Below, piece after piece: positions 3 to 19,774 of a stretch of DNA of 64,000 bases. Position numbers and translations under genes: made by a program. Position 1 is the stretch's first letter, and each line of letters opens with the position of its first letter. The notes under the pieces were generated by a model. The model ran no database searches and was not told the origin of the DNA. It saw nothing but the letters and a program-made list of their open reading frames with translations. This DNA is from an uncultured Rivularia sp. (GTDB lineage Bacteria > Cyanobacteriota > Cyanobacteriia > Cyanobacteriales > Nostocaceae), in NCBI GenBank assembly GCA_963665115.1, contig OY762007.1, positions 544,001 through 608,000 on the forward strand. The letters run 5' to 3'.

Positions 3-1229
3 ACAAATACCCAAGCGGTGAAAGTTGGTTATAACGGTGAGGGTTTTCGAGCAACTTCGATTACAGCACGTCGTTATAGTCGTCAAGAAAATGTAGTTCC
101 TGGAAGCACGGGAGCGTTACAGATTCTTGATGATATTAACTCAACAACATGGACGCAGGAATTACGCTTTCAATCTCCCGAAACTTCCGAGCGTTTGCAA
201 TGGTTGTTAGGTGGTTACTACGAATCTCGCGACTTTAAAGTTGATGATGCTCGAACCGACTTTCCCGGATTTGGCAGATTTCGCCGTTTTGGTGATGATT
301 CTCGTACAACCTATGCGGTATTTGGGCAGGTAGATTATAAACCTATCGAACCATTAACCGTATTTGCCGGTTTGCGTTACGAAACTTCCGATGCATCTTC
401 AGATAGTAGCTATGAATCGGTAGCTGCTGACGGTAGTTTAACTCCACTACGTCCAGAATTTACAGATGAAGAAGTTAGTAATGATGAATTAATTCCTCGC
501 TTTGGTTTGAAATATCAACTCAATCCTAATTTAATGGCTTATACCACAATTGCCAAAGGTTATAGACCAGGTGGATTGAATTATCGTGCTAATAGCGAAG
601 CAGAATTACGATTTGGAGAAGAAAAAACTTGGAGTTACGAAGCAGGTTTAAAATCTTCTTGGCTGGATAATCGTTTGATTGCCAACTTGTCGGTATTTCA
701 TAACGATGTGAATGACTATCAAGTATTACAATTTGACAACACTGGATTTTTCGGAAGTGTCAGCAACATTGATGTCAAAGCCACTGGGGTTGAATTTGAA
801 CTGAAAGCAAAACCAGCAGCAGGACTAGATTTAATTGCATCAGTTGGTTATGTAGATAGTAAATACAAAAACTATTTAAACTCAGATACTGGAGTGGATT
901 TGAGCGACAATCAAGTTCCTTTCGTACCGCAATTTACCTATAATTTAGCGGCTCAATATCGAACAAAAGGAGGGTTATTTGCTCGTGCCGGATTGAGCGG
1001 TTATGGTATTACTTATTTTGATGACGATAATCAAATCAAGCAAGAACCATACGTTCTCGTAAATGCTCGTATCGGTTACGAAGCTGAAAAATACGGAATT
1101 TATTTATATGCAAATAACCTGTTTGATTCTCGCTACATTACTTCTGGCTTCTTATTCCCAGTACCAGACGGAACCGCAGGATTTGGAGATCCAGTTACAT
1201 ACGGAGTCCAATTTAAAGCGACTTTGTAA
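3..1229 (+). CDS. TonB-dependent outer-membrane receptor, C-terminal beta-barrel part (5' end outside window)
   Basis: Frame is open from the window start. Alternating beta-strand pattern with TBDT motifs (KGYRPGG, SYEAGLKS, NLFDSRY) and C-terminal YGVQFKATL. Confidence 0.9.
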   Translation, partial: TNTQAVKVGYNGEGFRATSITARRYSRQENVVPGSTGALQILDDINSTTWTQELRFQSPETSERLQWLLGGYYESRDFKVDDARTDFPGFGRFRRFGDDSRTTYAVFGQVDYKPIEPLTVFAGLRYETSDASSDSSYESVAADGSLTPLRPEFTDEEVSNDELIPRFGLKYQLNPNLMAYTTIAKGYRPGGLNYRANSEAELRFGEEKTWSYEAGLKSSWLDNRLIANLSVFHNDVNDYQVLQFDNTGFFGSVSNIDVKATGVEFELKAKPAAGLDLIASVGYVDSKYKNYLNSDTGVDLSDNQVPFVPQFTYNLAAQYRTKGGLFARAGLSGYGITYFDDDNQIKQEPYVLVNARIGYEAEKYGIYLYANNLFDSRYITSGFLFPVPDGTAGFGDPVTYGVQFKATL

Positions 1230-1260
1230 TTTGAATGGTTTGTTTTTCTAGAAACTGGGC

Positions 1261-1286
1261 GGAGACGTTATATATAACGTCTCTAC
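1261..1286. repeat. GTAG-type REP-like palindrome (GGAGACGTTATATATAACGTCTCTAC)
   Basis: Inverted repeat. Same family recurs at about 33701, 38077, 43154, 52560, 52698, 53816 and 56708. Confidence 0.8.
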
Positions 1287-1312
1287 AAAACGTCTTATGA
1301 ATCTATATTCTT

Positions 1313-2521
1313 ATGCTCTCTAAACTAATCCTTCTCGCCGCACTTTACACCGCTCAATTCATACCGACAACCTTTTTTATCCAAACCGTACCTATCTTTA
1401 TGCGACAGCAAAATATGTCGCTTGATGCTATAGGCTTTTTAAGTTTTCTGATTCTTCCTTCAGCATTAAAATTCCTTTGGTCGCCATTCATAGATCGTTA
1501 CCGTTTACCTAAGTTAGGACATTATCGCGGCTGGATTATTCTTTTTCAGTTGTTATTAGCACTTGTCACATTTGGATGTGCATTTATTGATATTCAAGAG
1601 AACTTCAGTACTTTAGTTATTTGTATATTCTGCGCTTTTTTGTTCTCCTCCAGTCAAGATATTGCCACCGATGCATTAGCAGTTAATTTACTCGAACCAA
1701 ACGAACGCGGAATTGGAAACGCTATTCAATCTGGGGGAAATGTTTTTGGGGCTATTATTGGCGGTGGTGGAGTATTAATTTTATTAGATAGAGTTGGCTG
1801 GAAGTACAGTTTAATCATCATGTCCGTATTGATGTTACTGACTTTGATTCCTGTTTTTTTATATAAAGAAAATAATCATAAACCCAAAACATCAAACTTA
1901 TTTAGGTCTTATTTTCAACCTTTTATTAGTTTTCTCTCTCGTCCCAAAGCATTACCTTGGCTTTTAGTGTTGGTGCTGTACATGGGAGGAGAGATGATGT
2001 CAGGAACAATGCTGCGTCCGCTTTTTGTAGATAGAGGCTTGTCGCTGTCAGAGATTGGCGTGATGTTGGGAATAGTTAGTTATAGCGTTCGTATTGCTAG
2101 CGCTTTAATTGCCGGAGTTTTGATTACTAAAATAGGAAGGATACGTTCCCTAATTCTATTTGGTTTAGCAGCAAGTATTGCAACACTTTTGTATATAATA
2201 CCCGCAAGTGGAATCAGTAATTTGCCCATCTTATACGCCGTCACAATCACAGTCAATGCATTGCAAGGAATGGCATATACCGCCTTACTTAGTGCAATGA
2301 TGGATAAATGCGATTGCCAGACAGCCGCAACAGATTATACGTTTCAAGTTTCAGTAGTGTATATTGGTGGAGTTGCTGCTTCAATGCTCAGCGGTAAGAT
2401 CGCGAGTTCTACCGGATATGTAGGTATGTTTATTATCAGTGCAGCAGTGGGTTTATTAAGCGTATTAGTGATTAGTAAAACGAGCGATCGAGTAGCGACA
2501 AATATGCAATCCCATTCTTAA
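1313..2521 (+). CDS. MFS permease, RhtX/FptX (AmpG-like) siderophore-uptake family
   Basis: About 12 TM segments with family motifs LKFLWSPFIDRY and SQDIATDALAV; lies directly after the TonB-dependent receptor. Confidence 0.82.
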   Translation: MLSKLILLAALYTAQFIPTTFFIQTVPIFMRQQNMSLDAIGFLSFLILPSALKFLWSPFIDRYRLPKLGHYRGWIILFQLLLALVTFGCAFIDIQENFSTLVICIFCAFLFSSSQDIATDALAVNLLEPNERGIGNAIQSGGNVFGAIIGGGGVLILLDRVGWKYSLIIMSVLMLLTLIPVFLYKENNHKPKTSNLFRSYFQPFISFLSRPKALPWLLVLVLYMGGEMMSGTMLRPLFVDRGLSLSEIGVMLGIVSYSVRIASALIAGVLITKIGRIRSLILFGLAASIATLLYIIPASGISNLPILYAVTITVNALQGMAYTALLSAMMDKCDCQTAATDYTFQVSVVYIGGVAASMLSGKIASSTGYVGMFIISAAVGLLSVLVISKTSDRVATNMQSHS

Positions 2522-2553
2522 AGTTACAGTTTATCAATGTTATTTTGACGCGG

Positions 2554-3837
2554 TTAATTAATCTCACGTACTGATGGTTTTAATGCCAACAAAGTACTTG
2601 TAATTAACATAATGCTACCTGCGACAGTGAAAAGAATTGTTAAATTAAAGTTGACTAATATACCAGCCAAAGCAAAGGAAAAAGGGGCAATTCCAAAGGA
2701 AGAAAACATCCCTAAACTCATAACTCTTCCTAACATTTCAGGTGGAGTTTGTTTTTGAATCCAGGTAATTCCTACCACAGTAAACAAGCCACTGCAAAGT
2801 CCTAATATAGCAATTGTAATAGCAGCTAGTGTGATGTTTGGGATAAAGCTAAGTAGAAACAGACCAAAGCCTTGTATACTAGCAAGACTGACCATTAATA
2901 CTCCAAGTTTGGGAAGATTTCGGATAAATTGAGGTGCTAATGTCCCTAATAAACCACCAGCACCCCAAGCTGACTGCATTATCCCTAAAGCGACTGCACC
3001 GCCCTGAAAGCGACTGTGAGCTAGTGAAGTAATCCCGACTTGTAATGGACCGACAAAAAGAAAATTTAGCATTACTAATATCAGCAAAAGTACTCTGAGA
3101 GACTGGTTGCGCCATCCGTAATAGAGTCCCTCACGCATACCATTTATTAAACTAATACTTTTGTTGGTAAAAGTAGATTTTGTAGAGTTTTGATTTGATT
3201 TCCCATCTAACACTGTTGAAGAAGATCTCATCTGTTTCATCAGCAAAAGCGTTATGGTTGTGATAACGAAAGTTACTCCATCAATTGCAAATGCTGCCTG
3301 GATACCGGCAGTTGCAATCAGCAAACCACCTAAAGCAGGTCCAATCAATAGAATTATTTGGGAAGTTCCTTGGCTTAAGGTATTACTTGCTACTAACTGC
3401 TCTTTTGGTACCAATGTAGGTATAATTGATTTCGATGCTGGGATAAAAAAACCATCTAGAATTCCGAAGCTAGCAGCAAAGAAGTAAAGATGCCATAGTT
3501 GTGTGACTTTAGAAGCAACTATTACTGTAAATAAAACAATCAGTAAACCACGTAAAGCATTGGAAATCAGCATAACTAATCGTGGTGAAAAGCGATCGCT
3601 AAAAACACCACCAAACAGCATTAAAACAGCACGAGGAATTGCTGCTGCCATCAATACTGTACCCAAGCTGATACCAGAATTAGTTAACTGTATTGTTAAC
3701 CAAGGCAATGCTATTATATAGAACTGATCGCCCAAAAGTGAAACGTTTTCACCGATGTATAAGAGTAGGAAGTTACGTACAGTTAGTGGTTTCCAAAGAG
3801 GAACCCGGTGATTACTCGATATTGTTGATTTGTCCAT
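2554..3837 (-). CDS. MFS exporter (H+ antiporter / EntS-like), last gene of the biosynthetic operon
   Basis: About 12 TM segments with motif A-like GGVFSDRFSPR and C-terminal TPPEMLGRVMSL. Confidence 0.8.
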   Translation of the reverse strand: MDKSTISSNHRVPLWKPLTVRNFLLLYIGENVSLLGDQFYIIALPWLTIQLTNSGISLGTVLMAAAIPRAVLMLFGGVFSDRFSPRLVMLISNALRGLLIVLFTVIVASKVTQLWHLYFFAASFGILDGFFIPASKSIIPTLVPKEQLVASNTLSQGTSQIILLIGPALGGLLIATAGIQAAFAIDGVTFVITTITLLLMKQMRSSSTVLDGKSNQNSTKSTFTNKSISLINGMREGLYYGWRNQSLRVLLLILVMLNFLFVGPLQVGITSLAHSRFQGGAVALGIMQSAWGAGGLLGTLAPQFIRNLPKLGVLMVSLASIQGFGLFLLSFIPNITLAAITIAILGLCSGLFTVVGITWIQKQTPPEMLGRVMSLGMFSSFGIAPFSFALAGILVNFNLTILFTVAGSIMLITSTLLALKPSVREIN

Positions 3838-3916: not shown

Positions 3917-5495
3917 TTAATTAACGCGACGTTGGTAGCCTTGCCAATATTTTTCTCTCAGCTTGCCCTTTTGCAATTTACCAGTTGGTGTTCTTGGTAA
4001 GGATTGAGTAAATTCAACACTTCTAGGTAACTTATAATCGGCAAGTTTACCCCGGATATAACTAATAATGTCTAATGCGGTTGCTTTCATCCCTTCTTTT
4101 AAAACAACAATAGCTTTGATCGTTTCTCCAAAATCTTCATCTGGAACACCAATTACTGCAACCTCACTTACTGCTGGATGTTCGTATAAAATATTTTCAA
4201 TTTCTGCTGGATAGACATTCTCGCCAGCATAAACAATCATATCTTTAACGCGATCGCAAATGTAAATATAACCTTCTTCATCAAAATAACCAGCATCACC
4301 AGTATGAATCCAGGCATTTACTAAGGTTTTTGCTGTAGCTTCGGGTAATTTCCAATAACCAATCATATTTGCAGGGGATTTGATCCAAATTTCACCTACT
4401 GAACTGCCTGATACCTCTTTACCATTACTGTCTAAGATAGCTACTGATACACCAGGAAAAGGTTTCCCCGCAGCTTTGAGTATGTCTGTATTTGTAGATG
4501 TATGAGCATCCGCAGGTAAACAGACAGCACAATTTCCGGTTTCCGTCATCCCATATATTTGTACGAAGTTACAGTCAAATGTGGCGATCGCTTTTTTGAG
4601 TAATGATTCGGCTATGGGAGAAACCCCCGTAAATAATATATTCCAGTGATGAAAAATCTGTTTTTTGGCATAATGGTTCGCTCAACAAAACTTGAATCAT
4701 TGCTGGAACCATACAAGTCTTGGTGATGCGGTACTTTTCAATCGCTTTGAGAACTTCAAAGTCTACAAAAGTTTCTAATATAATATTGGAGGCTGCGGAT
4801 GCCAAACCGCGAATAGCCCACCATAAACCTCCGATATGGAATAAAGGTAAGGTAACTAGATTCTTGTCAGTTTCGTTCCAATTTATCCAGCTTTTATCAA
4901 GTTTCGCAAATTCATTGGCGATGGCAAAAAAACTATAATGTCCTAGTTGGACACCTTTAGGTCGTCCTGTAGTGCCACTAGTATACATTTGTACGGCTAC
5001 ATCATTTTCGTCAACAGCAACATTGGGTGGTTCGTCACTATATTCGTGGCACCATTTATCATAAATGGGCCAATTACGGTCAGTTTTTTCTAAAGCAATA
5101 ATAGTTTTAACATCATCAATTTCGTTTTTAATTGATTCTACTAATTGATAAAAATCAGATCCGACAAAAAGAATTTCAACATTAGCATCGCTTAGAATAT
5201 AGCTCACTTCAGCAGCAGCTAAACGCCAATTAATTGGTACTAAAACAGCATTTATTTTGCAACAAGCAAATAAGATTTCATAACTTTTAAGTGAATCTTT
5301 AGCTAAAAGTGCCACTCGCGCACCTGGTTTAATTCCGACAGCTAAAAGTGAATTTGCGATTTTATTACTTCGTTGTTCTAATTGTGAATAAGTAAGTGCA
5401 TTATCTTTGAATATTAATGCTTTCGCATCTGGAAATTGACGCGCTTGTACCTGTGGTAAATCTGCTAATGTGAGAATTTTATTGTTATATATCAT
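3917..5495 (-). CDS. Acyl-CoA/acyl-ACP ligase (AMP-binding, ScoC-like role); split by a +1 frameshift at ~4622
   Basis: YTSGTTGRPKG, YGMTET, HTGDAG and PRTPTGK motifs. Removing one base at GAAAC (4620-4624) restores YGGSPIAESLL and joins ORFs 4575-5537 and 3917-4549. Confidence 0.88.
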
Positions 5496-8400
5496 AGATG
5501 TTAATTGTTTCAAGAGATTTTTGTAATTCTTGAGCAAGAGTTTGAATGTGTGGAGGGCGGACTATACTAAAGTGATTACCATCTAAAGTTTTCGTGAAAG
5601 TGGCTGCCGTAGTATATTTACTCCAGTCGGTATGAGGTAATATTTGATCTTGCCAATCTGAAGCCCACCAAACGTGCAGCGGTGCTTCAATTTGGGGAGA
5701 ACGGTGAACTTGAAGAATTCGGTCGTGAATTTCGGTGATATTTAATTGTTTTTCTAGGATATCGATAGAAATATCTGTGGGAAATAAGTTTCGTTTTTGT
5801 CCCCAATCCATTATAAATTGCAGGCGTTGGCGAGAAGATAAATTGATGAGTTTTTCTCGCAGTTGTTGCTGTTCGACTGCATCAAGAGCCATAAAAGCAT
5901 CAAAGAAAGTACCGCCAAATACTAACGATACATCGATGAGGGGGTCACGTTTAAGTTGTGATGCATTATTTGAGATGAATTCGGACATCAAAAAGGAATC
6001 CACTAGCCCCACAAAAGCTACTTTGTGTCCTTGTTTTTCTAACTCTTTGGCAACAGTTACGGCAATTACTCCACCCATAGACCAACCCATAAGATAATAA
6101 GGGCTATGGGGTTGATGCTGATAAATAGCTCTATAGTATTGGGCAGCCATCTCATCAATGCTTTTATGCTCTTGTTCCGGCTGATTGAGAGCGCGAGACT
6201 CTATTCCAATAATTGGTCTATCTGCTCCCAAACAAGCTGCCAAATGCTGATACACCATCACTTGTCCCCCGGCTGGATGAATGCAGAATAAGGGGGGCTG
6301 AGTACCTTGAGTTTGGATTGGAACTAAGTATGTGGAAGTTAATGAATCAGCAGAATTTTTGGCAATCTTAGCAGCAAGCTCTGCCACGGTTGGATATTGG
6401 AAAATTTTACTCAAAGATATATTTGTCTCAAGTTTCTGATTGATTTTTGAAACTAATTGAAGTGCCAAAAACGAATGTCCACCCAACTCAAAAAAGTTAT
6501 CATGGATGCCTATCTGCTCAAATTTAAATTCTTCAGTCCAGGTTTCAATTAATAATTCTTCAATAGAGTTGCGAGGAGGTACAAAAGTTTTTTCTAATTC
6601 TGGCTTGATGCGATTAGGTAAGGGAAGCGTGCGACGATCTATTTTGCCGTTAGATGTCAGGGGTAAAGATTCTAACAGCATGAAAGTAGAAGGAACCATG
6701 TAATTAGGTAGTTTTGCTTCTAGATAATTACGTATTTCGCTGAAATTTGGGCTAATATTTTGTTGCAGATTTTTAACTATATAACCGATAAGGGATTTAT
6801 TTCCTCGTTCTTCTACGACAGCATTTACCACAGCTTGTTTAATAGCGGGATGTTGTTTTAATGTCGCTTCAATCTCTCCCAATTCAATCCGATAACCATT
6901 AATTTTCACCTGAAAATCGGAACGTCCCAAAAATTCAATATCTCCACTCGGTAAATATCTTCCTAAATCCCCGGTTTTATATAATCTTTCCCCAGTTACC
7001 GGATGATTAATGAAGCCTTCTTTTGTCTTTTCATCATCTCCCCAATAACCCAATGCCAATCCAATCCCACCAATATAAAGTTGTCCCACAACCCATATCG
7101 GAGTTGGTTGCATTAACTCATTCAACACATAAAACTGTTGATTCGTCAGAGGTTTACCGTAAGGAATACTTTTCTCGCTAGGATCGACGGTAGTGATGGG
7201 ATAGAAAATCGACCAAATCGAAGCTTCCGTTGCTCCCCCCAAACTAACAATTTCAATATCCGAACAATAACTTTGAATTTGAAGCGGTAAATTTAAAGGC
7301 AACCAATCTCCACTCAACAAAGCCAAACGTAATGGTAATGCTGTTATTGCTGGCTGTGAGGATAAGTATTCTACCAACATTTGCATCAAAGCCGGAACTG
7401 AGTTCCAGATAGTTATCCGTTGCTTAACTATTAACTCATGCCAGCAAGCAGGATCTTTTACTGCATCTTGTGGTGGAATAACTATGGTTGCCCCAGCTGC
7501 GAGAATACCGAAGATATCGTATACTGATAAGTCAAAATTTAATGCTGATAGAGCTAAAAGGCGATCGCCATTTCCAATTCCAAACCGCTGATTAATATCA
7601 ACAATTGTATTCACCGCACCTCGATGATCGATCGCAACTCCTTTTGGTAATCCTGTGGAACCTGATGTATAAATTACGTAGGCTAGATTTTCGATATTTT
7701 GATCTTTTAAAGACGTTACATCTAAAGTCTCTACATCATCATCGCTAATACATACAGTCTGCACACCTGGAGGTAAAGAAAGATTGTTTTCAAGGTGTGG
7801 TTGAATAACAACTAATTGAACTTTCCCTTGTTCGAGTAAATACCACTGTCTTTCTTGCGGTAAATTTGGATCGATTGGCAGATATGCCGCTCCAGACATT
7901 AAAATTCCTAGTACAGCTACAACTTGTTCCCAACCTTTCTCCATAACTACAGCAACTAAAGTATTGGGGATTGCTCCCAACTGTTGTAATTTAGCTGCTA
8001 ATGTAGATGCCTTTTGATATATTTCCCTATAAGTAAAATTCCTCTCGCTGGTAATTACTGCTAATTCTTCGGGTTGTACTTTGACTTGCTCAATAAACAA
8101 ACCGTGCAAAGTTTGCTCGCAAATTGGAGCGCTAGTGTTATTAACTTGATGGCGTTGAGATAATTGAGCTTGTGGTAATAATTGTTGATGTGCTTCAACC
8201 CAAGCTGATTCGGAAGTTGCTAATCGTTGGAGTAAATTGCAGTAAGCCGCAAACATATCATCGATCAAACCTTCTGGGAAGAGTTTCTTCCACCACATCC
8301 CAATTAAAGATTAATGCTCCTTTTTGTTCGGTAACTTGATGATCCAGCAAAACTTGGGGGGTTTGACTGATACCATAAATCACTTCTCCCAAAAAATTGA

Positions 8401-9712
8401 ATTCTAAATCTCCCTTAGTAAAAGAGTTTAAACCTAAAACACTGCTAAAAACTATGGGCATAACTGCAGTTAACCCGGTTTTCTGACGACGAGCTAATTC
8501 CCGCAATAACTCCACTCCACTAACATGAAGATGCTCTAAGTCTTGTAGCAATTGCTGTTGTAGTTTCTGAGCGCGACTAGTAAATGTTGCTTGCCTTGAA
8601 TTGTCTACTGCTAATAGAGTTGTATTGGTAAAATCTCCAACAACTCGATCTATTTCAGGGTGAAGAGGAAGACGCTCGAGTACAGTCAGATTAAGAGTAA
8701 ATCGAGGATTTTTGCTCCACAACCTTAAAACTTCAGCAAAAGCAGCCAGCAATACCATAGAAGGAGTCAAACCAGCATTTTTCCCTCGCTGTTTCAATTG
8801 CTGCCAAATATTTGGTTCAAGTTGAGCAGCGTAACGTTTAAATCGATAATCTTTTAACTCGCTGGGAAAATAAATCAGAGGTAATTCTGGTGCTGGGGGT
8901 AAATCATCTAAACGGCTTAACCAGTAATTTTGCGATCGCTTGACTAATTCAGAATCTTGCAAGCCTTGCTTATTAATTACATAGTCGCGGAAAGAGATTT
9001 GCGGTAATGGCAAGCATATTTGTGGATTATGATAAAATTGGTTCCACTCCTCAAATAGAATACGAATACTCCCAGCATCCGCCATCAATAAATCTAGATT
9101 GATGTGAATTCGCACACGCCCCTCGTCTAAATAAGTGGCTCGAATATTGAACCAAGGCCACTCCTGTGGTGGTAACATTTGATGGGATAATTGTTCCCGA
9201 ATAGCTTGAAGCTGAGCCTTTACTTCAATATTTTTCAGTCCTCGCAGATCTAAGATTGAGATTTCATAGGGTGGAACTTTTTCTAAAACTTTTTGCTCTC
9301 CTGTAGGTAGCACTACAGCACGCATCATCTCGTGGCGATCGATTAATTTCTGCCAAGCTGTTGAAAGCCTTGACAAATCTAAATTGGTAGCTTCAAATTC
9401 CAGATAATGATGATTTGCTACATTACCTAACTCAAATACCTCACTGCGCCCCAACCAATGGGCTTGCTGAATATCAGTAAGAGGAAAAGGTTCATATTTT
9501 TTACTACTATCCGGCTCGATTGCTGGTAGAGAATCAGTATTTATCTCAGTTTGACTAAGCAAACGTATAATATCTAATTTATGCTCTACTAAGGAATTTC
9601 TTAACTCTGAACTCAAAACTCCTTTTGGTGCTTCAATAATTAATCGTTCGTTTTTAACTGATAATTTAATTTCTCGCTGTTCTAGTTGTTTTAAAAGTTC
9701 ATTTCTATTCAT
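5485..9712 (-). CDS. NRPS 2: N-terminal docking domain-Cy-A(Cys)-PCP-TE; +1 frameshift at ~8285
   Basis: Cy motif DLLMADAGS, A-pocket code DLYNLSLIWK read by eye, PCP FFELGGHSFL, TE GWSMGG. The paralogous copy has GAGTTC where this copy has GAGTTTC. Confidence 0.92.
6827..8390. repeat. ~1.55-kb near-identical duplicate (Cy end plus A(Cys) core), copy B
   Basis: Long identical nucleotide stretches shared with ~11021-12585. Confidence 0.88.
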
Positions 9713-12700
9713 AATTCGATTATTTCTGTATCATCATTAGATTCAATAGATAAAGGCGATGACTTAATTTTTGCGATGGTTAATTGCTCCTCTACAGCTA
9801 CAGCTAATTCTGCAATATTCGTTGCTTCGACTAATAACTGTTTCATGGAAATATTGACTCCAAGTTGAGTTTGTAACTTATTTCTCAACTGCACTAATTT
9901 CAATGAATCCATGCCCAATTGAAAGAAATTATTATCGATTCCCACAGCATCTATCTGGAGAAGTTCTTGCACAATTTCGGCTAAAGATCTCTCCATTTCA
10001 GTTCTTGGAGGTGTTAGAACTGTTTCATATTTAGATTTGAGTATATCGGGGCTGGGTAACTTCTTACGGTCTACTTTTCCATTCGCAGTTAAAGGCAAAG
10101 CATCTAAGATAATATACTCAGAAGGCACCATATATCTTGGTAGCTTCTGTTGTAAGTACTCCCGTAGCTGTACAGAAATTGATTGTGAATCCCGATCTTT
10201 TTTAGAATTTAACCACTGTTTAGTTTGAGCTAAATCGATTTTGCCACCTACAAAGCTATAAAGTAAAACCTGACTTGATTCCAGTTTAAATATATCTTGT
10301 ATTTTGCTCAATTCCAAATAGCCAATAGGACATAATCCTATTTCCTGTTCTGGCGCAGATTTCATTAATAATTGACCGATATGACCTGCTTCTAAAAGAC
10401 AAAATTCTTTTGCTAATTCTCCATAAATTGGGGTAATGGCGCTTAGTTCTCCAATTAAAAATAGGGAAAAAGCACCATTATCAAAAATTGGTTGATTACC
10501 ACGATAAATACTATTATCAATTTCGCTGCCACTACTAACTAATATTAAACGATGGTCGGCAGGATTGTAATAGTATATTCCTGCTTCCAAACCTTCTATT
10601 CGGTTGGGTTTAATTAATAAGTAAGTTTGTACGGGATAAAGACTACCAGCGGAAGGGTAAAGATATTTTGGTAGAGGATAATCCTCCAGTTTCATCTGTT
10701 GTAAGCAACTTAAAAACTTGCTTAATTGTGTTAACGAAATAGGTTGGGGTAGAAATTGTCGATAACTTTGACGTTCTAAGTAAGCTTGGGTAACGTCTTC
10801 ATCAGACTCAGTTTGGGGCAATTGTACGCTATGTTGAGAAGATTCTAACTGTCGCAATCCTGGTTGTTTGAGCTTAAATTCAATCCGTTCTATAGGATCT
10901 TGTATTACTCCTTCTTGTTGAGCAGGCTGGTAAGCTTCTGCGGGATTTTGAGTAGAGGGATTATCGCCAACAATATAAGCTACAAGTTGCTGTTTATTTT
11001 GTGATTCTCCCACTGCAATCACCACAGCTTGTTTAATTCCAGAATGCTGTTTTAATGTCGCTTCAATCTCTCCCAATTCAATCCGATAACCATTAATTTT
11101 CACCTGAAAATCGGAACGTCCCAAAAACTCAATATTCCCGTCAGGTAAATATCTTCCCAAATCCCCAGTTTTATATAATCTTTCCCCAGTTACCGGATGA
11201 TTAATAAAGCCTTCTTTTGTCTTTTTCAAATCTTCCCAATAACCCAAGGCTAATCCAATTCCCCCAATATAAAGTTCTCCCACAACCCATAATGGAGTCG
11301 GTTGCATTAATTCATTCAACACATAAAACTGTTGATTCGTCAGAGGTTTACCATAAGGAATACTTTTCTCGCTAGGATCGACGGTAGTGATGGGATAGAA
11401 AATCGACCAAATCGAAGCTTCCGTTGCTCCCCCCAAACTAACGATTTGAATATCCGAACACTTTGCTTGAATTTGAAGCGGTAAATTTAAAGGCAACCAA
11501 TCTCCACTCAACAAAGCCAAACGTAATGGTAATGGTGTTATTGCTGGCTGTGAGGATAAATATTCTACCAACATTTGCATCAAAGCCGGAACTGAGTTCC
11601 AAATACTTACCCCGCACTTAACTATTAACTCATGCCAGCAAGCAGGATCTTTTACTGCATCTTGTGGTGGAATAACTATGGTTCCCCCAGCCGCAAGAAT
11701 ACCAAAGATATCGTATACTGATAAGTCAAAATTTAATGCTGATAGAGCTAAAAGGCGATCGCCATTTCCAATTCCAAACCGCTGATTAATATCAACAATT
11801 GTATTCACCGCACCTCGATGATCGATCGCAACTCCTTTTGGTAATCCTGTGGAACCTGATGTATAAATTACGTAGGCTAGATTTTCGATATTTTGATCTT
11901 TTAGAGACGTTACATCTAAAGTCTCTACATCATCATCGCTAATACATACAGTCTGCACACCTGGAGGTAAAGAAAAATTGCTTTCAAGGTGTCGTTGAGT
12001 AACAACTAATTGAACTTTCCCTTGTTCGAGTAAATACCACTGTCTTTCTTGCGGTAAATTTGGATCGATTGGCAGATATGCCGCTCCAGACATTAAAATT
12101 CCGAGTACCCCTACAACTTGCTCCCAACCTTTTTCCATGACTACAGCAACTAAATTGTTGGGAGTTGCTCCCAACTGTTGTAACTTCGCTGCTAATCCAG
12201 ATGCAAATTGATATATTTCCTTATAAGTAAAATTCCTCTCGCTGGTAATGACTGCTATTTGTTCGGGTTGTACTTTCACTTGCTCAATAAACAAACCGTG
12301 CAAAGTTTGCTCGCAAATTGGAGCGCTAGTATTATTAACCTCATGGCGTTGAGATAATTGAGCTTGTGGTAATAATTGTTGATGTGCTTCAACCCAAGCT
12401 GATTCGGAAGTTGCTAGACGCTCTAGTAAATCGCAATAAGCCGCAAACATATCATCAATCAGACCTTGTGGGAAGAGTTCTTCCACCCCATCCCAATTAA
12501 ATATCAATGCTCCTTTTTTCTCTCTGACTTGATGATCCAGCCAAACTTGGGGCGTTTGACTAATACTGTAAACTTCTTCTCCCAAACGATCTAACATCCA
12601 TATTTCTTCACCGAGCGAGTCCAAACCGAGGGTGCTGGTAAAAACTATTGGTACAATCTGATAGCTTTCTCGCCGACGATTTAATTCTCGTTGAACCTTT

Positions 12701-15700
12701 ACCGCACTAATATAACCGCGATCTAAATCTTGCCATAGTTGCTGCTGTAATTTTTGAGCGCGGTTGGCAAATGTATTAGGAACTGAGTTATCAACTTCCA
12801 GAAGTGTTAGAGAGGTGAAGTCGCCAACTAAATCGTTGACTTGGGGGTGCAGGGATAAACGATTAAAAAGAGTCAAATTAATCGTAAATTTCTGACTTTT
12901 GCTCCAAATACCAAGAATTTGGGCGAAAGCAGCTAATAAAACCCCACTAGGAGTTAAATTAAATTTATTTCCCCAATCTTTCAATTGTTGCCATTCACTT
13001 GGGGATAGTTTGGCGTTGCGACGTTTAAATTTAGGCTTGGTAATAGAACCTGGATTCTTGGCTAAGGGTAATTCTGGTGCTGAGGGTAGAGTTTCTAATC
13101 GGTTAAACCAATACTCCTGAGAACGTTGATATTGTGGTGTATTTGATAAAGTTAACTCCGCGAAAACATAATCTCGAAATGAAAGTTCTAGTGGGGGTAA
13201 TACAACATCGGGATTCTCGTAAAGTTTTGCCCACTCTCGCCCCAGGACAAACATACTCCAGGCATCAGCTATCAGTGCATCGAAGCTGAGATGAAGTCGG
13301 ATATGTACCTGATCCAAACGAGTAGCTCGGATTTCAAACAACGGAAAGCTATCTGCTGTTAATACCTCATGAGACATACGTTCGCGGATAGATTCGAGCT
13401 TTGCGTTAACTGCTTCGTCAGATTCTCCGCACAAGTCCAAAAGCTCAATATCGTAGGAGGGAACTTGTTCTAGAATTTGCTGCTGACCATCTGGTAAGAT
13501 TACAGTTCTGAGCATCTCATGGCGGTCAATTAATTTCTGCCATGCCTGATTTAACCTTTGCAGATTTAAGTTTTTACTTTCTAACTCTATATAACCGTGA
13601 GCAGCAATATTACCTAGTTCAAAGGCTTCATTACGACCTAGCCAGTAAGCTTGTTGAATATCGGTGAGAGGGAAGGGCTGATACCGTTGCTCGGGAGCAG
13701 GTACAATTGTCGGCAAAGGAACCAACATTTCAGATGAAGATTCACCTTGACGCAAAGAAGCAAGATTTTGGGTAAGTTCGGCAACGGTGGGAGATTCCAA
13801 CAAAGAGCGTAAGGGAAACTCAACATTAAAAGTTTGCTGTAATCGAGAAACTACTTGAGTCGCGAGCAGTGAATGTCCTCCCAATTCAAAAAAGTTATCG
13901 TGAATCCCCACTCGTTGCAGTTTCAGTACCGAGGTAAAAATATCAGCAATTGCTGCTTCGGTAGATGTGCGGGGTGCAACAAATTCTACTTGTCGATTTT
14001 GCTCTACATCCGGTGTGGGTAAAGCGCGACGATCTATTTTACCATTAGGGTTTAAAGGTAAAGCTTCTAAAATGACAAAAGCAGACGGCACCATATAATC
14101 GGGCAACTTCTGCCTGATTAAATCACGCAATTCCTTAGTGCTTAAAGATTCTTGGCGAGCAACAATATAGGCAGCTAAATACTTATTATCTACTTGTTCT
14201 TCTCGAACAATTACCACCACTTCTTGTACTTGAGGATGGGTAATCAGAACCGCTTCAATTTCCCCTAACTCGATGCGGAAGCCACGAATTTTAACTTGAT
14301 TGTCAATTCTACCCAAAAACTCAATGTTTCCATCAGGTAAATACCGAGCTAAATCTCCAGTTTTATAAAGTTGTTCTTGTTTTACTCCCCTATTTGCAAA
14401 GGGGCTGGAGATGAATTTCTGCTTAGTTAAATCTGGACGATTAAAGTAGCATTGCGCCAAACCAATACCACCAACGTGCAGTTCTCCCGGAACCCCAATA
14501 GGAACTGCTTGGAGATGACTGTCTAAGATATAAACTTGTGTATTATTAAAAGGATGTCCAATGGGCACTAGCCCATCAACAGATAAATTGACATTCGTAC
14601 TTTCAAAATAGGTACTGTCAATAGTGGCTTCACTCAGCCCATAGGAATTAATTAAGCGAGTATTAGAATCGCAAAAACGCTTCCATTCTTGATATTCTTT
14701 TACATATAAACTATCCGAACCTACCACCAACAACCGCATAAAGTGAAGATTTTGGTTGGTTCTTTTCAGATATTGCACCAAATTCCTCAAAACAGGTGGA
14801 ACAAACTCCGCGCAATCAATCTTCTCTTCGCGCATCAAGTTATACAGCTTTTCCGGTTCTAAAAGCCACTCACGGGGACATAAAACTAACTTACCCCCAG
14901 AGCAAAGAGCGCGAATGAAATCCCCAGAAAACACATCAAAAGAGAAACTAGCCATTTGTAAATGACTGGTGAGGGAATTAAGCTGATATGCATCTTCCCA
15001 AGCCCAATATGCATTAACTAAACTACGATGGGCGATCGCAACTCCTTTAGATCTACCTGTAGAGCCTGATGTGTATACTACATAGGCTAAATTTTCTGAC
15101 GTGGCACTGTGAACTAAATTTGTTTCACTTTCCTGACTAATAACTTGCCAATCTTTGTCCAAACAAACCACAGGTATATCTTGCTCGGGAAGAATTTCTA
15201 GCAGTTTTTCTTGAGTCAACAATACCGATACCTGTGAATCACCAAGCATGAAATTCAAGCGCTCTTGAGGCAATCGCGGATCTAAAGCTACATAAGCTCC
15301 ACCAGCTTTAAGAATTCCTAAATTACCTACAACCATTTCCAGGGAAACGCTCCACATAAATTCCCACTAGCACATCTGGCTTTACTCCCAATGAATGCAA
15401 GTAGCGTGCTAATTGATTAGCTCGTTCGTTTAACTCTTGGTAAGTCAGTTGTTTGTCTTGAAACGATACAGCTACTGCATTTGGTGTTTTATTCGCCCTA
15501 TCTTCAAATAACTGATGAATGCACAAACAGGGGGGATATTCTACTTGGTTATTATTCCACTCTCTCAATAAATTCTCTTCGACATCCGATAGCATTGGTA
15601 ATAAACCAATCTCCTTCTGTGGGTTGTTGACAATTCCCTCAAGTAAAGTCTGAAAATTGTCCGCCATTCGCTTGATAGTCGTTTCATCAAATAAATCAGT

Positions 15701-17113
15701 GCTGTACCTGAAAATACCAATTAAGGATTCTCTTGTCTCGACAATATCCAATACTAAATCGTTTTGTCCTTCCTGTTGCGGTATCACAAAAGGTTCTAAA
15801 GTCAAACCTCCCCAACTTTCTGCAACTGTTGTTTTATTAGACACAGATAATTCATATTCCGGTGCCATTTCCTGAAGTTGCAACATATTAAACGAAGCAC
15901 GGAAAAGCCCAAGAAGACTGGGGTCGCGGTTTAACTGTAATCGCTCGATTAATAATGGAGTTGGATAATCTTGATGGGTGAGTGCTGCTAATACCGATTG
16001 ACGCACTTGAGACAAAAGCTCAGAAAAGGTAGGATTGCCAGCAAAATTTACTCGCAGAGCCAGCATATTAACGAAAAAGCCTACAGTATGGGCGAATTCA
16101 GCCTTACTTCTCCCCTCCGTAGGAGAGCCAACAACGATATCTTCCTGCCCCGTGTAGCGATGAACCAGTACTTGAAAAGCTGCCAGCAGGGTCATGTAAA
16201 GGGTTGCTCCCTCCCCTCTTCCTATTTCCTTAAGCTTATGGGCTAATTCTTTAGTTAGTTCAAAACTATAACAAGCTCCTTGATAATTCTGCACTGGCAT
16301 TCGCGGGCGATCCGTAGGCATATTTAGTACTGGTAACTCCCCAGCAAACTGTTTCTGCCAATATGCCCAATTATTATCCCCCACAGGACTTTTGAGCATT
16401 TTATCTTGCCATTGCACAAAGTCCTTATACGAGTGCTTAATAGGAGCTAGAGATACTGAAGAACCATGACTTTCCGCCTCGTAGAGCAAACGCAACTCAT
16501 CTAAAATAATCCCAAATGAAAAACCATCTACCGCAATGTGATGTATCGTCAGTAATAACACATAGTCTTGTAGAGAGCGAGTAAATAGATCTACTCGGAT
16601 TACACAACCTCGTTGCAAATCAAAAGGACGCTTATATGCAGCGATCGCCCTTTCGATCAATTCCGAATCATCCCAATTTGAAGCGTCAGTAGTTTCAATA
16701 GAGAATTCCTGGTATTCGTGAACTACTTGAAAAGGTTCAGCATCTCCTTGAGCAAACGTAGTACGTAGTGTGGGATGACGAGCTATTAATGCCTGCAAAG
16801 CCCGTTCCAAAGCCGGAACATTTAAACGGGAACGGATGCGAACTGTAAAAGCAATATTATATGCAGCGCTTGATGGTGCAAGTTTATATAGAAACCATAA
16901 ACCTTGCTGACCGTAACTAAGAGGATAGGATCTAGAACTATAAAAATCGGATCTCAATAAATGAATAATTTCTGTCTTATGCTGCTTAATTTTATTTAAT
17001 AGTGTGGAAGTTAATGCTTCTTTAGGACCCCGATAACGCAGCTTATCATTCTCTACCCACAATTCCACATTCTGCTGTGATAGGTCTTTAATAAAATCAG
17101 CTAAATTATTCAT
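9709..17113 (-). CDS. NRPS 1: docking domain-C-A(Orn/Lys-like)-PCP-Cy-A(Cys, embedded Ox)-PCP; +1 frameshift at ~15346
   Basis: C motif HHIAVDG, A1 code DVGEVGSIDK, PCP LGGHSLL, Cy motif DALIADAWS, A2 code DLYNLSLIWK, FMN oxidase insert (RQSYRQF...YPSAGSLYPVQ), PCP LGMDSL. Deleting one base restores ERSLEMVVG. Confidence 0.92.
11021..12585. repeat. ~1.55-kb near-identical duplicate, copy A
   Basis: Matches ~6827-8390; identity ends where the Ox domain is inserted. Confidence 0.88.
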
Positions 17114-17532
17114 ATTTCTCCGTCAATCCAATCATCATCATCATTTATTGCTTTGGAGTTGAGGTTTTCCTTATCTTGAGAGAGAGCATTTTCTATCTGC
17201 TCATCCACTAGCATTACCAAATTAGCAACAGTAAAGTCGTCTAGGAATTTCACCGCAGCCAAGTCCACCAACCAATCGGTTCTCACTTTATTCCTCAGTT
17301 TTACAGCAATCAGAGAGTCAATTCCTAAATACTTGATAGACTGCTGCATATCTAATTCAGATGGGCTTATACCTATAGCTTTAGCAATCTCAAGACGCAT
17401 ATAAGCTCCTAAGAATTCTTGACGCTCGCTTGTAGTGAATTCAGCCCATCTTTCTAAAAATTCATAGGGTTTTACTACAGTGTGTTCTAATTCTTCTTGT
17501 GATTCAATTTCACCAATTAATTTGGAATGCAT
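17110..17532 (-). CDS. Stand-alone acyl carrier protein (PKS-type) with acidic C-terminal docking tail
   Basis: Phosphopantetheine motif LGIDSLIAVKLRN and C-terminus DDDDWIDGEI; stop overlaps the NRPS 1 start. Confidence 0.88.
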   Translation of the reverse strand: MHSKLIGEIESQEELEHTVVKPYEFLERWAEFTTSERQEFLGAYMRLEIAKAIGISPSELDMQQSIKYLGIDSLIAVKLRNKVRTDWLVDLAAVKFLDDFTVANLVMLVDEQIENALSQDKENLNSKAINDDDDWIDGEI

Positions 17533-17567: not shown

Positions 17568-18164
17568 TTAAGTTAATACAGATTTGTGACCATTATTAAT
17601 AGTTTTTTCATTCTCGCTATTTAAGATAGCGATGGTAACATCACCTTCAGACCAACCACCATTATCATCATAAAATGCACAGGAAGTTTTCAACATAATT
17701 AAATCCCCACGAGCAGATACTTTATTTATTGATAAAGCTCCTTGAAAATGATTAGAATTTATTGGCTTTTTAAAAGCGCTAGAAAATTTAACAATCAGAA
17801 AATCACTCAGATGACGAAATTCATAGGTTTCTAAACTCCAATTTTTCATCACCTCCAACAAATCATTTTGTACTAAATAAGCAATTATTATATAGAACAA
17901 TTGGTTGTAACAAATATTGAATTCTACTGAATTAAAATGACCAGTATCATCAATATAGCAAGATTCTGAAATTGAAAAGTCAGCTTTTATAAACCATAGA
18001 CTCCGAACATCACTTTTATTTTTATCAATCAAATCACTTTGTATTGGATATTGAAATTGAGCTTTTTTTAGATACTTACAACTCTCCTTATAAGGCTTAA
18101 GAAAAGTATCCAATAAATCCTGATTAACATCATCAACCTTGATATATTCCTGATTGATATTCAT
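17568..18164 (-). CDS. FcoT-family thioesterase (ScoD/Rv0098-like; Gly Michael addition)
   Basis: Family signature ESCYIDDTGHFNSVEFNICYNQ and N-terminal LKPYKESCKYLK. Confidence 0.88.
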   Translation of the reverse strand: MNINQEYIKVDDVNQDLLDTFLKPYKESCKYLKKAQFQYPIQSDLIDKNKSDVRSLWFIKADFSISESCYIDDTGHFNSVEFNICYNQLFYIIIAYLVQNDLLEVMKNWSLETYEFRHLSDFLIVKFSSAFKKPINSNHFQGALSINKVSARGDLIMLKTSCAFYDDNGGWSEGDVTIAILNSENEKTINNGHKSVLT

Positions 18165-18274
18165 AGTTTTTGCTCAGTGGATTAGATGATAACTACAATC
18201 AAATAAATAAACCACAGAACTGTAACCTCTGTGATTCTTCAATTTGATTGTTAATTTGCATGTAAAAGTAATAT

Positions 18275-19171
18275 TTACTTGACAAGCATTCTTGACTGTT
18301 TTTCCACACTCTCAGAGGAAACATAAAATGGTAAGCCATCGTAAATACCGATGCGATAGCTGACACTTTTCTCACCTGTTGGCACTGTAGAAGCCATATG
18401 ATTTAAACTTCTGTTCTCCCATAAGAGAATATCTCCGTCTCTCCATGTATGGGTATGAATATGCTCATCACGTTCAATAAATGCAAATAGTTCGGGCAAA
18501 ACTTTTTGATTTGTTTCACGATCAACATTCACAATACCAGTGGTAAAACCTTGGCTCATGTACAATATTTTTTCATTAGTAACGGGATGGGTAATTACAG
18601 ATGGGTGTGTTACAGATGGAAATTTATTTTCAAAATCATTCATAATATCGATGACTGCTCTATCAATATCACACTCTTGGACTTTATAACGCCATTTAGC
18701 CTCATGACGTAAATATTTTCCATCAACATACATTTTTAAATTTGCAGGCAATTTTTTATAAACCTGCTGCATATCTATGTAATAAGTTTCTCTAATCGAA
18801 TGAGGTAAAACTTGCGGGTATAACATCGTAAATGGCAAGGGTTCATTAAGAAATGCACAGTCAGTATGCCAATATCTGCCAGTACCCTTAACTCCAAATT
18901 TCTTCCCATCTTTCGGAACATTAGAAGATACAAATATTTCTGGATAATCTGGGTGATGATAATTATCTTGAGGGTAAATTTGTGGAACTCCAATTTTGCT
19001 CGCAAATTCTAAGTATTGGTCTTCATTAATATTTTGGTTTCTGAAAACCACTAATTTATGTTCGTATACAAGTTGCTTAATTATATTGATTTGTTCTTTA
19101 GCAATTGAAACAACGTCTATGTCTAAAATCTCTGCACCAATAAATTCCAAAGGAGGTCTATTAATCTTCAT
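18275..19171 (-). CDS. TauD-family Fe(II)/2-oxoglutarate dioxygenase, ScoE/Rv0097-like isonitrile synthase (alternative TTG start 19240)
   Basis: HxD in TGRYWHTD, distal His in WENRSLNH, VSYR. Segments YHHPDYPEIFVSSN, YPQVLP, TYYIDM and LYMSQGFT are recalled as ScoE-like; adjacent to an FcoT gene. Confidence 0.85.
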   Translation of the reverse strand: MKINRPPLEFIGAEILDIDVVSIAKEQINIIKQLVYEHKLVVFRNQNINEDQYLEFASKIGVPQIYPQDNYHHPDYPEIFVSSNVPKDGKKFGVKGTGRYWHTDCAFLNEPLPFTMLYPQVLPHSIRETYYIDMQQVYKKLPANLKMYVDGKYLRHEAKWRYKVQECDIDRAVIDIMNDFENKFPSVTHPSVITHPVTNEKILYMSQGFTTGIVNVDRETNQKVLPELFAFIERDEHIHTHTWRDGDILLWENRSLNHMASTVPTGEKSVSYRIGIYDGLPFYVSSESVEKQSRMLVK

Positions 19172-19774
19172 TGTTTTTTGTATGCTTATTTTATTGGAAC
19201 TTGCCTTCTCTACATCTGTTCCTTGTTTTTTGTTCTGCAATTCTGCTCAAATAATTGACAATCCTCTTACAAAGTAAAGTAGATGAGAATGGTATAAAAA
19301 ACCATTTATATTACCTACTATGGATATATTCAAAACTCACGATGTTGAATATTTATGATTCATTGAGACTATAACCTAAAATCTATTCCTAGCAAAAAGT
19401 AACAAATAGTACATATTAGTTTTTACTATTATTGACTATTTTTCTTCACAGGAATAAAAAGTAGCTATTTATACTATTTCTTTAAATTAAATGTTTTCAG
19501 TGCTTATAATGAATTGCTTTCAGTGCTTATATAGATAGAAAAACGATCGAAGCAATAGTCTAAAATAATACTAATTATTTAAAATGAATTTGTTGGTAAT
19601 CAATTTACTGTATTTTTATTTAAGTAAGCAGAATAATTCTGATGTTTGATAAGTTGTCAAACTAATCTCAAATGCTTATTAATTAAGGACTTTTAAAGCA
19701 GAGCGACTAACCGTTCTAAATCATAAGAATAATTAATCAAAAGTAAGTTAATAAAAATTATGATATTTGGATCA

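Follow-up and report, generated by a model that had tools for sequence, protein, structure and literature searches.

The window, the whole 64,000-nucleotide stretch of DNA that was analysed, was found by Pfam and profile searches to carry the nine genes of the proposed cluster, seven on the minus strand and two on the plus strand. The minus-strand genes encode, in order, a ScoE-like dioxygenase, an FcoT thioesterase, an acyl carrier protein (ACP), two non-ribosomal peptide synthetases (NRPS1 and NRPS2), an acyl ligase and an MFS exporter. The genes for an AMIN-TonB receptor and an AmpG/RhtX-like permease are on the plus strand, convergent with this biosynthetic run. The same nine-gene composition and convergent arrangement had been proposed in a sequence-only reading, and the domains found (PF02668, PF10862, AMP-binding, MFS, TonB barrel) bear it out.

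Gene content and integrity of the locus

The features are as follows.

1..1229, plus strand: AMIN-plug-barrel TonB-dependent receptor, 3' half (PF11741, PF07715, PF00593; 838 aa, start G000:C1:542713)
1313..2521, plus strand: AmpG/RhtX-like MFS permease, predicted inner-membrane importer (MFS_1/Acatn domains; TIGR00901 229/350 bits and TIGR02718 195/356 bits, neither reaching its cut-off)
2554..3837, minus strand: MFS protein (H+ antiporter/EntS-like), predicted product exporter (PF07690, PF05977; TIGR00900; EntS model below cut-off)
3917..5492, minus strand: acyl-ACP ligase, putative ScoC-like role (AMP-binding halves; extra base at 4621)
5485..9712, minus strand: NRPS2, TubC_N docking-Cy-A(Cys)-T-TE (Pfam, motifs, code DLYNLSLIW; extra base at 8284)
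9709..17113, minus strand: NRPS1, TubC_N-C-A(ornithine-like)-T-Cy-A(Cys, oxidase inserted)-T (code DVGEVGSID; extra base at 15345)
17110..17532, minus strand: stand-alone ACP, putative ScoB-like role (PF00550, PF23297; GIDS serine motif)
17568..18164, minus strand: FcoT/ScoD-type dual-function thioesterase, presumed to catalyse Michael addition of glycine and then hydrolysis (PF10862)
18275..19171, minus strand: ScoE-clade Fe(II)/2-oxoglutarate dioxygenase, predicted short-chain isonitrile synthase (PDB match, NF049937, tree, residue table)
19644..19662, no strand: palindrome GTTTGAC-N5-ATCAAAC ahead of the biosynthetic genes (differs from the PetR core at one position; not a petJ-type direct repeat)

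The four-gene isonitrile cassette and the NRPS genes form a single run in which neighbours overlap by 4-8 bases or are separated by no more than 110. The cassette had been described as fused to the NRPS; in the window the two are adjacent only, and an ACP-NRPS1 fusion occurs in 8 of 38 related loci. The start of the dioxygenase gene, previously placed at a TTG at 19240, is moved to the ATG at 19171, in agreement with the database entry and with relatives (298 aa). For the uptake genes, the AMIN-plug-barrel domains uphold the earlier call of a TonB receptor, while the RhtX/FptX label given to the permease falls short of the family threshold, TIGR02718 scoring 195.2 bits against a cut-off of 356.15. 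The receptor gene begins approximately 1.3 kb outside the window, which includes only its 3' half. A terminator and promoter scan of 1200-4000 gave no signal above shuffled sequences.

NRPS1, NRPS2 and the ligase gene are each split in the record by one extra base, at window positions 15345, 8284 and 4621, respectively; these three frameshifts are absent from the sequence-only reading. In relatives the ligase is a single open reading frame of 517-528 aa. All three extra bases are missing from runs X1, X2 and X4, of which X4 is diverged while X1 and X2 show no other listed difference in long contigs. They are present in run X3, and the copy in G007 is fragmented, with one Cy module and the permease missing, as might be expected if the cluster were a dead remnant in its host. 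However, a control stretch (28001-48000) contains four further single-base insertions that are found in X3 but not in X1 or X2. As one of these splits dnaB, the breaks are attributed to record-wide errors and not to decay of the cluster. The pseudogene reading was therefore rejected, and a cluster dead in the organism itself is scarcely credible.

The isonitrile cassette and the assembly line

The dioxygenase carries the TauD domain PF02668, and its best solved relatives in the PDB are ScoE (6dch, E 2e-68), an Rv0097-type enzyme (1e-43) and TauD (1e-26). In a tree that does not include ScoE itself, it shares a branch with 100/99 support with P0135, apart from the TauD-like sequences. P0135 was the sole sequence above the NF049937 (ScoE) cut-off among 42 representatives scanned, and the cyanobacterial dioxygenases form a sub-branch separate from it. 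The window's enzyme scores 274.5 bits against the NF049937 cut-off of 400. Its placement with ScoE and not with TauD, anticipated from the letters alone, is supported by the tree and by the PDB match. FcoT (PF10862, E 3e-56, 189.6 bits; PDB 5wsy, E 4e-31, and 2pfc, E 1e-24) likewise scores below the NCBIfam ScoD cut-off (NF049938, 153.5/250 bits). The FcoT gene follows the dioxygenase gene in 34 of the 38 loci, three of the four exceptions being contig ends. A dioxygenase gene adjoining PF10862 was the selection filter for isonitrilases later found active (PMC11811631).

In ScoE numbering, residues Y96, Y101, H132, D134, F137, R157, K193, D198, G238, F239, H295 and R310 are kept in all 120 close homologs, and F239 marks short-chain enzymes. 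The second arginine of TauD (position 306) is found in none of the 120. R195 of ScoE is replaced by Gln in 112 homologs, the window's dioxygenase also having Gln, and by Thr in the other 8; position 299 is never His, position 97 is never Tyr, and Y191 is likewise changed clade-wide. In ScoE, the R195Q variant gave no product and H299 assists 2-oxoglutarate binding (PMC7949033). Two ScoE residues with roles in activity or cosubstrate binding thus differ throughout the clade, and isonitrile formation by the present enzyme is predicted.

The FcoT thioesterase, ACP and acyl-ACP ligase are all within the cluster, together with NRPS1 (C-A-T-Cy-A[Ox]-T) and NRPS2 (Cy-A-T-TE). In module 2, on NRPS1, an oxidase of the nitroreductase family (PF00881) is inserted in the A domain. 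Motifs are intact in C1, both Cy domains and the TE, with DLLMAD, DFT, QTPQVLLD and GWSMG in NRPS2. The code of A1 is DVGEVGSID, which we take to resemble an ornithine signature, and that of the NRPS2 A domain is DLYNLSLIW (Cys). The order predicted earlier, a diamino acid followed by two cysteines, fits these codes, and the two heterocyclising Cys modules with TE release are consistent with the intact Cy motifs and with the terminal PF00975 domain carrying GWSMG. This terminal domain is a thioesterase; no terminal reductase is present, and G342 alone showed the C-A-T-reductase form. The ScoE/FcoT cassette recurs in 38 loci, 15 of them with Cy domains. Eight loci have the cassette but no adjacent NRPS (L043, L046, L048, L049, L052, L053, L056 and L057), three of these with a Pfam-confirmed PKS.

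A petJ-type PetR site and the choice of metal

The petJ-type motif of PetR is GAC-N5-GTC inside TTTGAC-N9-TTTGAC (10.1101/2020.07.31.226407), and a motif of this type arose de novo from the promoters of the clusters. An exact petJ-type activator site is located in the receptor promoter (G000:C1:542598-542618), approximately 1.4 kb before base 1 of the window. When a matrix built from the relatives only was applied to the 8.7 Mb of G000, three sites scored above 20 bits: one at the receptor gene, one at petJ and one at an operon that encodes a DsbD_2 membrane protein; the shuffled genome gave none. Allowing one mismatch, the pattern has 33 sites in 23 of the 38 loci (0.65 Mb), which are kin and give non-independent counts, against none in three shuffles and 146 summed over 61 whole genomes. 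The reversed pattern, used as a control, gave two chance matches in G000 at one mismatch. Of the 33 sites, 27 are directed towards one of three cluster genes: 15 towards that of the receptor, 9 towards that of the dioxygenase and 3 towards that of the exporter. A -10-like xAxxxT lies 17-19 bases downstream of 35 of 37 sites, which is the spacing of a -35 element, compared with 2-15 of 37 at other offsets. G000 also carries petE and petR-petP, the latter pair consisting of a BlaI-family gene and, after it, a gene for an M48/M56 protease.

The petJ-type site is missing from the window's own biosynthetic promoter, where only a degenerate site, the palindrome at 19644-19662, is present, with a matrix score of -9.5; at the equivalent promoter G007 has a perfect GAC-N5-GTC core. 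Fifteen of the 38 loci lack a petJ-type site, several of them being short contigs. A consensus-motif search of 29 upstream regions found no conservation of Zur or Fur boxes: Fur-like matches at four mismatches occur in 3 of 29, and no Zur match has fewer than two. One Fur-like 19-mer with four mismatches lies some 750 bases before the dioxygenase gene of the window, none of 20 shuffles giving a match as good. Across 15 aligned receptors no Cys, His or Met column is conserved that could serve as a metal-binding signature.

With petJ-type sites shared by 23 of the 38 loci, mostly before receptor or dioxygenase genes and at -35 spacing, the site in the receptor promoter points to induction by copper starvation. 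The metallophore function suggested earlier gains independent support from this putative low-copper switch at the uptake genes, which narrows the "Cu/Zn" of that suggestion to copper.

Proposed product, alternatives and related systems

The cluster probably directs the synthesis, export and re-import of a chalkophore in which ornithine bears β-isonitrile acyl arms and precedes a thiazole and a thiazoline, with uptake genes switched by PetR at low copper. The likely product is a (3-isocyanobutanoyl)-ornithine-thiazole-thiazoline acid. By analogy with the Sco pathway, the ligase would load a short enoyl acid, probably crotonate, onto the ACP, FcoT would add glycine and free the acid, and the dioxygenase would convert the glycyl group to the isonitrile, after which the ligase would reload the acid. 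C1 would then join the isonitrile acyl group to one or both amines of the residue loaded by A1, presumably ornithine. The two Cy-A(Cys) modules would add two rings, the first made a thiazole by the inserted oxidase, and the TE would release the acid, the putative di-acyl C4 form of which is C21H26N6O4S2 (490.146 Da). The MFS exporter would secrete the product, and the AMIN-TonB receptor and permease would return its copper complex. PetR, accumulating when copper is lacking, would bind and activate the promoters; the site, its position and the petRP genes are observed.

A different outcome would follow if the dioxygenase stopped short of the isonitrile, for example by stripping the glycyl carbons to leave a β-amino acyl starter in the manner of the flavin oxidase route to macrolactam starters; the product would then be a thiazole/thiazoline metallophore devoid of isonitrile. 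The clade-wide changes at R195, H299, Y97 and Y191, the score below the ScoE family cut-off and the separate branching of the cyanobacterial group speak for it, as does the active Gram-negative enzyme Hneap, which retains R195 and H299 as judged by eye from the supplement (PMC11811631). It is nevertheless unlikely, as the substrate contacts conserved in isonitrilases (triad, Y96, K193, R310) and R157 are all invariant, and loci L032, L034, L040 and L055, which have no Cy domain, retain the PetR site along with cassette, MFS and receptor, so that the group derived from the cassette would be the obvious ligand there.

Somewhat less probable still is a general metallophore, one for iron or zinc, or a compound that buffers metal, copper control then being incidental. 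In favour of this, pyochelin-like siderophores typically have Cys-derived rings and come with a TonB receptor and an RhtX-like permease, and the Fur-like 19-mer lies upstream of the window's dioxygenase gene. The thiazole-thiazoline lusichelins bind Fe and Cu with no clear preference (PMC12210259). Yet the rarity of Fur-like matches and the lack of a good Zur match to the consensus contrast with a conserved, positioned PetR site, and the cluster is without salicylate or hydroxamate genes. A mainly antimicrobial or allelochemical role, with a copper-depriving or copper-delivering isonitrile, a bleomycin-like bis-azole tail and a receptor that merely recovers the product, would accord with the part of ScoE relatives in making the antibiotics aerocyanidin and amycomicin (PMC11811631) and with the eight loci, three with PKS, that have the cassette without an NRPS. 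Those eight, however, show neither a receptor match nor a PetR site at the cassette, while the NRPS type has both. In addition, receptors of three divergent groups, with only 23-30%, 40-51% and 56-74% likeness among themselves or with that of the window, have each been brought in together with a PetR site. This role is considered quite improbable.

The preferred reading, an isonitrile chalkophore, relates the cluster to several known systems. It resembles the actinobacterial isonitrile lipopeptide (INLP) pathway (ScoA-E of Streptomyces coeruleorubidus, SF2768/Sfa, Rv0097-Rv0101) in clustering the genes for dioxygenase, FcoT thioesterase, ACP and acyl ligase and, as predicted here, in a diamino-acid-loading NRPS and a link to copper (10.1101/308460, PMC9600254), the actinobacterial diisonitriles being chalkophores induced by copper starvation (PMC9600254). 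It differs in TE instead of reductive release, two Cy-Cys modules, the oxidase, docking-domain NRPSs, TonB receptor and permease, the PetR site, the cyanobacterial host, and a dioxygenase sub-branch with Q195 and without H299. The aerocyanidin (AecA), amycomicin (AmcA) and Hneap systems also combine a ScoE-type enzyme with FcoT, Gram-negative hosts included, and the P2, P3 and P8 pocket residues of the window's dioxygenase (G, F, A) are those of AecA and Hneap (table S1). Those systems feed a PKS, the first two giving antibiotics, whereas the window pairs NRPSs with genes for export and re-import. Among the related loci, those of cyanobacteria and myxobacteria that are linked to a PKS are closer to these PKS-feeding systems. 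The pyochelin type, lusichelins and leptochelins likewise have Cy-A(Cys) modules and an oxidase, release by a TE, and an MFS protein together with a TonB receptor; in lusichelins thiazole and thiazoline are directly linked (PMC12210259). Unlike these, the window lacks a salicylate starter, PKS, reductase and methyltransferase, the Pfam/NCBIfam scan having found no salicylate-type starter genes among the cluster genes, and the starter would be the predicted FcoT/ScoE product on ornithine. The extended petJ-type site in activator position and the presence of petRP agree with the PetR/PetP regulon of Synechocystis (petJ, petE, slr0601-0602). The four regulated genes in the available text of the PetR study include no biosynthetic or TonB targets (10.1101/2020.07.31.226407), whereas here the site precedes a natural-product cluster and its receptor.

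A literature search that extended to few subscription journals and not to MIBiG found no published description of a product of a cyanobacterial ScoE/FcoT cluster or of a natural-product cluster under PetR control. The main and supplement text of PMC11811631, as available, names no cyanobacterium, though its 365-gene alignments and network figure may include some. In the accessible text of a 2025 review on cyanobacterial copper (PMC12292863) the words chalkophore, metallophore and TonB are absent. Isonitriles go unmentioned in that of the antiSMASH metallophore paper (PMC12971057), which states that NRPS-made thiazol(id)ines are undetected; such clusters would therefore escape those rules. The cluster is thus likely a variant form of the isonitrile chalkophore type with no prior description found.

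On balance, the wider family appears to comprise modular isonitrile peptides (0, 1 or 2 azole rings, optional spacer residues) that would constitute a dedicated chalkophore system of oxygenic phototrophs, wired to PetR and TonB uptake and made with a divergent synthase lacking two residues required in ScoE. The signal for the plastocyanin/cytochrome c6 swap would then also start scavenging. The cluster is a named, testable candidate for the acquisition of scarce copper by cyanobacteria, with copper chelation as its expected growth condition, a handle for click chemistry and calculated masses, and would extend Fe/2OG isonitrile chemistry to these organisms and to azole hybrids. Its dioxygenase offers a natural variant for the study of the ScoE mechanism, and the PetR site may be used for mining copper-linked clusters.

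Gene order and state of the record

The gene order claimed for the cluster in the sequence-only reading was borne out by ORF lists and family scans, which gave the following features.

From 19171 down, minus strand: TauD-family dioxygenase, FcoT thioesterase, ACP, NRPS1, NRPS2, AMP-binding ligase and MFS exporter
Start 1.3 kb before the window, plus strand, convergent with the biosynthetic genes: TonB-dependent receptor (AMIN-plug-barrel, 838 aa)
Plus strand, convergent with the minus-strand run: AmpG/RhtX-like permease

The minus-strand genes overlap by 4-8 bases or are separated by gaps of 35-110 bases, and the genome, a single contig of 8.69 Mb, has one match each to the ScoE and FcoT families. 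In the record a frameshift interrupts each of NRPS1, NRPS2 and the ligase gene, and at each break, always a short homopolymer, the relatives have one base fewer. The extra bases (4621, 8284 and 15345) were absent from three of four public sequencing runs (X1, X2 and X4) and present in X3, all four being from one study and X3 possibly not independent of the record. A 20 kb control stretch held four further single-base insertions, present in X3 and absent from X1 and X2, one of which splits dnaB. Seven insertions in 40 kb, an essential gene among those hit, indicate a record-wide error, and the organism itself probably lacks the frameshifts in the cluster. The insertions (4621, 8284, 15345, 34339, 36486, 39535 and 46880; about one per 6 kb) also interrupt two genes outside the cluster, dnaB with its intein (38073-40797) and one for a DUF3352 protein (45467-47339), so that apparent pseudogenes of this record are to be distrusted.

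Elsewhere, window 24832-31419 carries an HlyD and C39-peptidase ABC exporter (minus strand), three similar 64-aa hydrophobic ORFs (plus strand; 29529-29723, 29820-30014 and 30190-30384) and, at 31093-31419, an ORF of 108 aa whose leader resembles the double-glycine type, possibly a bacteriocin with immunity proteins.

Dioxygenase, assembly line and predicted product

The best structure match of the dioxygenase was ScoE, the Streptomyces isonitrile synthase (E 2e-68), followed by SfaA-type 6l86 (6e-64), mycobacterial relatives (1e-43) and TauD (1e-26). The proposed kinship with ScoE rather than TauD is supported by a tree of 56 rows (16 close homologs from 120 listed and 40 representatives from 150 listed; bootstrap not fully settled), where the dioxygenase falls in a 100/99 branch with the database representative P0135, apart from TauD-best rows, and the cyanobacterial enzymes form a separate sub-branch. 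Of the 42 representatives scanned, P0135 alone passed the ScoE cut-off. Among the best 120 of 524 homologs, Y96, Y101, H132, D134, F137, R157, K193, D198, G238, F239, H295 and R310 (ScoE numbering) occur in 120/120, and TauD's arginine at position 306 in 0/120. F239, described as a predictor of short chain (PMC12946266, PMC11811631), predicts a short-chain substrate. FcoT matched PF10862 and structures 5wsy and 2pfc, the GHxNSVE stretch included; dioxygenase-FcoT pairing is reported as the selection filter for enzymes later proven isonitrilases (PMC11811631).

The first condensation domain has the motif HHIAVDG, both later ones have the Cy-type motifs DxxxxD, DFT and QTPQVxLD, and the TE has GWSMG. 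TubC_N docking domains at the start of NRPS1 and NRPS2 fit the order ACP, NRPS1, NRPS2. The A1 code is DVGEVGSID, which we take to be ornithine, while A2, which carries an inserted nitroreductase-family oxidase (family scan), and A3 both have DLYNLSLIW, presumably cysteine. In the Sco pathway the ligase is reportedly used twice and a single-module NRPS puts acyl on both lysine amines (10.1101/308460). By analogy, the product would be an Orn-thiazole-thiazoline-carboxylic acid that bears one or two 3-isocyanobutanoyl groups; with two, it is C21H26N6O4S2 (computed, 490.146 Da). The number of acyl groups, the length of their chain, the identity of the diamino acid and the oxidation state of the second ring are all tentative assignments.

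A2 and A3 are 93% alike in DNA (1228/1326), so that a recombination collapse is conceivable in the closest relative, L015 (G007:C1:6956000-6975999), whose cluster is in pieces, with one Cy module, no oxidase match and no permease; this state could come from A2/A3 recombination or may reflect assembly error.

PetR-type sites

Zur and Fur motifs, searched with what we take to be their consensus, were not conserved across 29 upstream regions. Shared words found de novo in 11-12 of the 29 resolved to GTTTGAC-N5-GTC-N-TTTGAC. The petJ-type site, at which PetR is reported to activate without copper, is described as GAC-N5-GTC within TTTGAC-N9-TTTGAC, centred near -35 (10.1101/2020.07.31.226407). A matrix of 26 sites from relatives only gave three sites above 20 bits in the window's genome and 0 in a shuffled genome. 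The three lie upstream of petJ, of the gene for a 155-aa His-rich protein and, at a distance of 94 bases, of the cluster receptor. This genome also has petR-petP and petE.

The published pattern, with one mismatch allowed, gave 33 sites across 23/38 loci, counts inflated by kinship among the loci, and none in three shuffles; whole genomes have about 2.4 each (146 sites summed over 61 genomes), so that site density is about a hundredfold greater in the cluster loci. The receptor, dioxygenase or exporter is faced by 27/33 sites (the L036 site counted under dioxygenase), and a -10-like element stands at the correct spacing in 35/37. Six loci (L023, L025-L028 and L030) have the site and then receptor, permease and dioxygenase in one orientation; L022, L029, L035 and L038 have two sites each, pointing outward both ways. 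No PetR site was found at the cassette in the eight loci without adjacent NRPS. The window's biosynthetic promoter has just a palindrome (19644-19662) that differs from the PetR core at a single base, so that for this cluster the site is established for uptake and not for synthesis. A reversed-pattern control gave two chance matches in the window's genome.

The top-scoring site precedes a three-gene operon (G000:C1:8176262-8179075; L082 2262-4994, minus) encoding the secreted His-rich protein of 155 aa, a membrane protein of DsbD_2/ferric-reductase-like type and a third protein of 193 aa, a candidate second low-copper uptake operon; the 155-aa and 193-aa proteins had no Pfam match. Upstream of the L054 dioxygenase (8680-9730) lie seven TTTGAC-N5-GTCAAA-like palindromes with a period of about 147 bases, either a tandem repeat or a multiplied operator. 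A Fur-like 19-mer with four mismatches (window 19915-19935) stands some 750 bases ahead of the dioxygenase gene, with similar matches in only 2/28 other upstream regions.

Distribution and interpretation

When each species was represented by a single genome, with loci ending at 10 kb or contig ends, the scan gave 38 loci: 34 titled cyanobacteria (including Scytonema, Brasilonema, Nostoc, Anabaena, Aetokthonos, Westiellopsis, Symploca, Okeania and Crocosphaera), three from myxobacteria and a last one on a 5 kb contig that is binned elsewhere. Within the order, 17/401 genomes gave an FcoT match. Dioxygenase is followed by FcoT in 34/38 loci, a Cy domain occurs in 15/38 and a receptor match in 18/38 (19 when the stretch was lengthened). 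Some loci have two Cy modules as in the window, others one (L022, G396), an additional first module with a different code (L025, L044, L045, L047) or C-A-T-TE alone (L034, L039, L040, L041). Others have no adjacent NRPS, PKS being confirmed in L043, L049 and L057; the cassettes of dioxygenase-FcoT(-ligase) without adjacent NRPS (L043, L046, L048, L049, L052, L053, L056, L057) are possibly isonitrile polyketide clusters of marine cyanobacteria and myxobacteria. L060 181-4770 (G342), where the NRPS is of C-A-T-reductase type and stands beside dioxygenase, FcoT, ligase and MFS genes, is the classical reductive-release form in a cyanobacterium. L062 (G144), L068 (G358), L075 (G139) and L078 (G400) have FcoT with no dioxygenase or NRPS match within 30-36 kb.

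The window cluster shares its working principle with the actinobacterial isonitrile chalkophore pathway but releases by TE and falls below two family cut-offs, and is therefore not a strict member. The mycobacterial form of that pathway is reported to be induced by Cu starvation, not Zn (PMC9600254). It has the Cy-Cys-oxidase logic described for lusichelins (PMC12210259) but no salicylate starter. Since ScoE relatives are reported outside actinobacteria and with PKS partners (PMC11811631), the cassette alone is not new; a literature search, with most subscription journals outside it, found no paper on a ScoE/FcoT product from cyanobacteria, on an NRPS of isonitrile-azole type or on a biosynthetic cluster linked to PetR.

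Against an isonitrile count the replacement of R195 by Gln (112/120) or Thr (8/120) and the loss of H299 and Y97 (0/120) in the best 120 of 524 homologs, together with a score of 274.5 against the ScoE family cut-off of 400; the R195Q variant of ScoE reportedly gave no product (PMC7949033). That this divergent dioxygenase makes no isonitrile is unlikely. A metallophore that is non-selective, or meant for Fe or Zn, seems quite improbable beside the petJ-type sites. An allelochemical would be very unlikely, and a dead cluster, as the split genes of the record might suggest, is hardly credible with three runs intact.

The probable reading is an isonitrile-azole chalkophore whose genes answer to PetR and which leaves the cell and returns through TonB uptake. 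The analysis directly observed the genes with their domains and motifs, an intact cluster in three runs, its distribution, and the regulatory site and where it lies; we infer every chemical step, PetR binding and copper transport. PetR would switch the cluster on at low copper, and the chalkophore would be exported and then re-imported via the TonB receptor.
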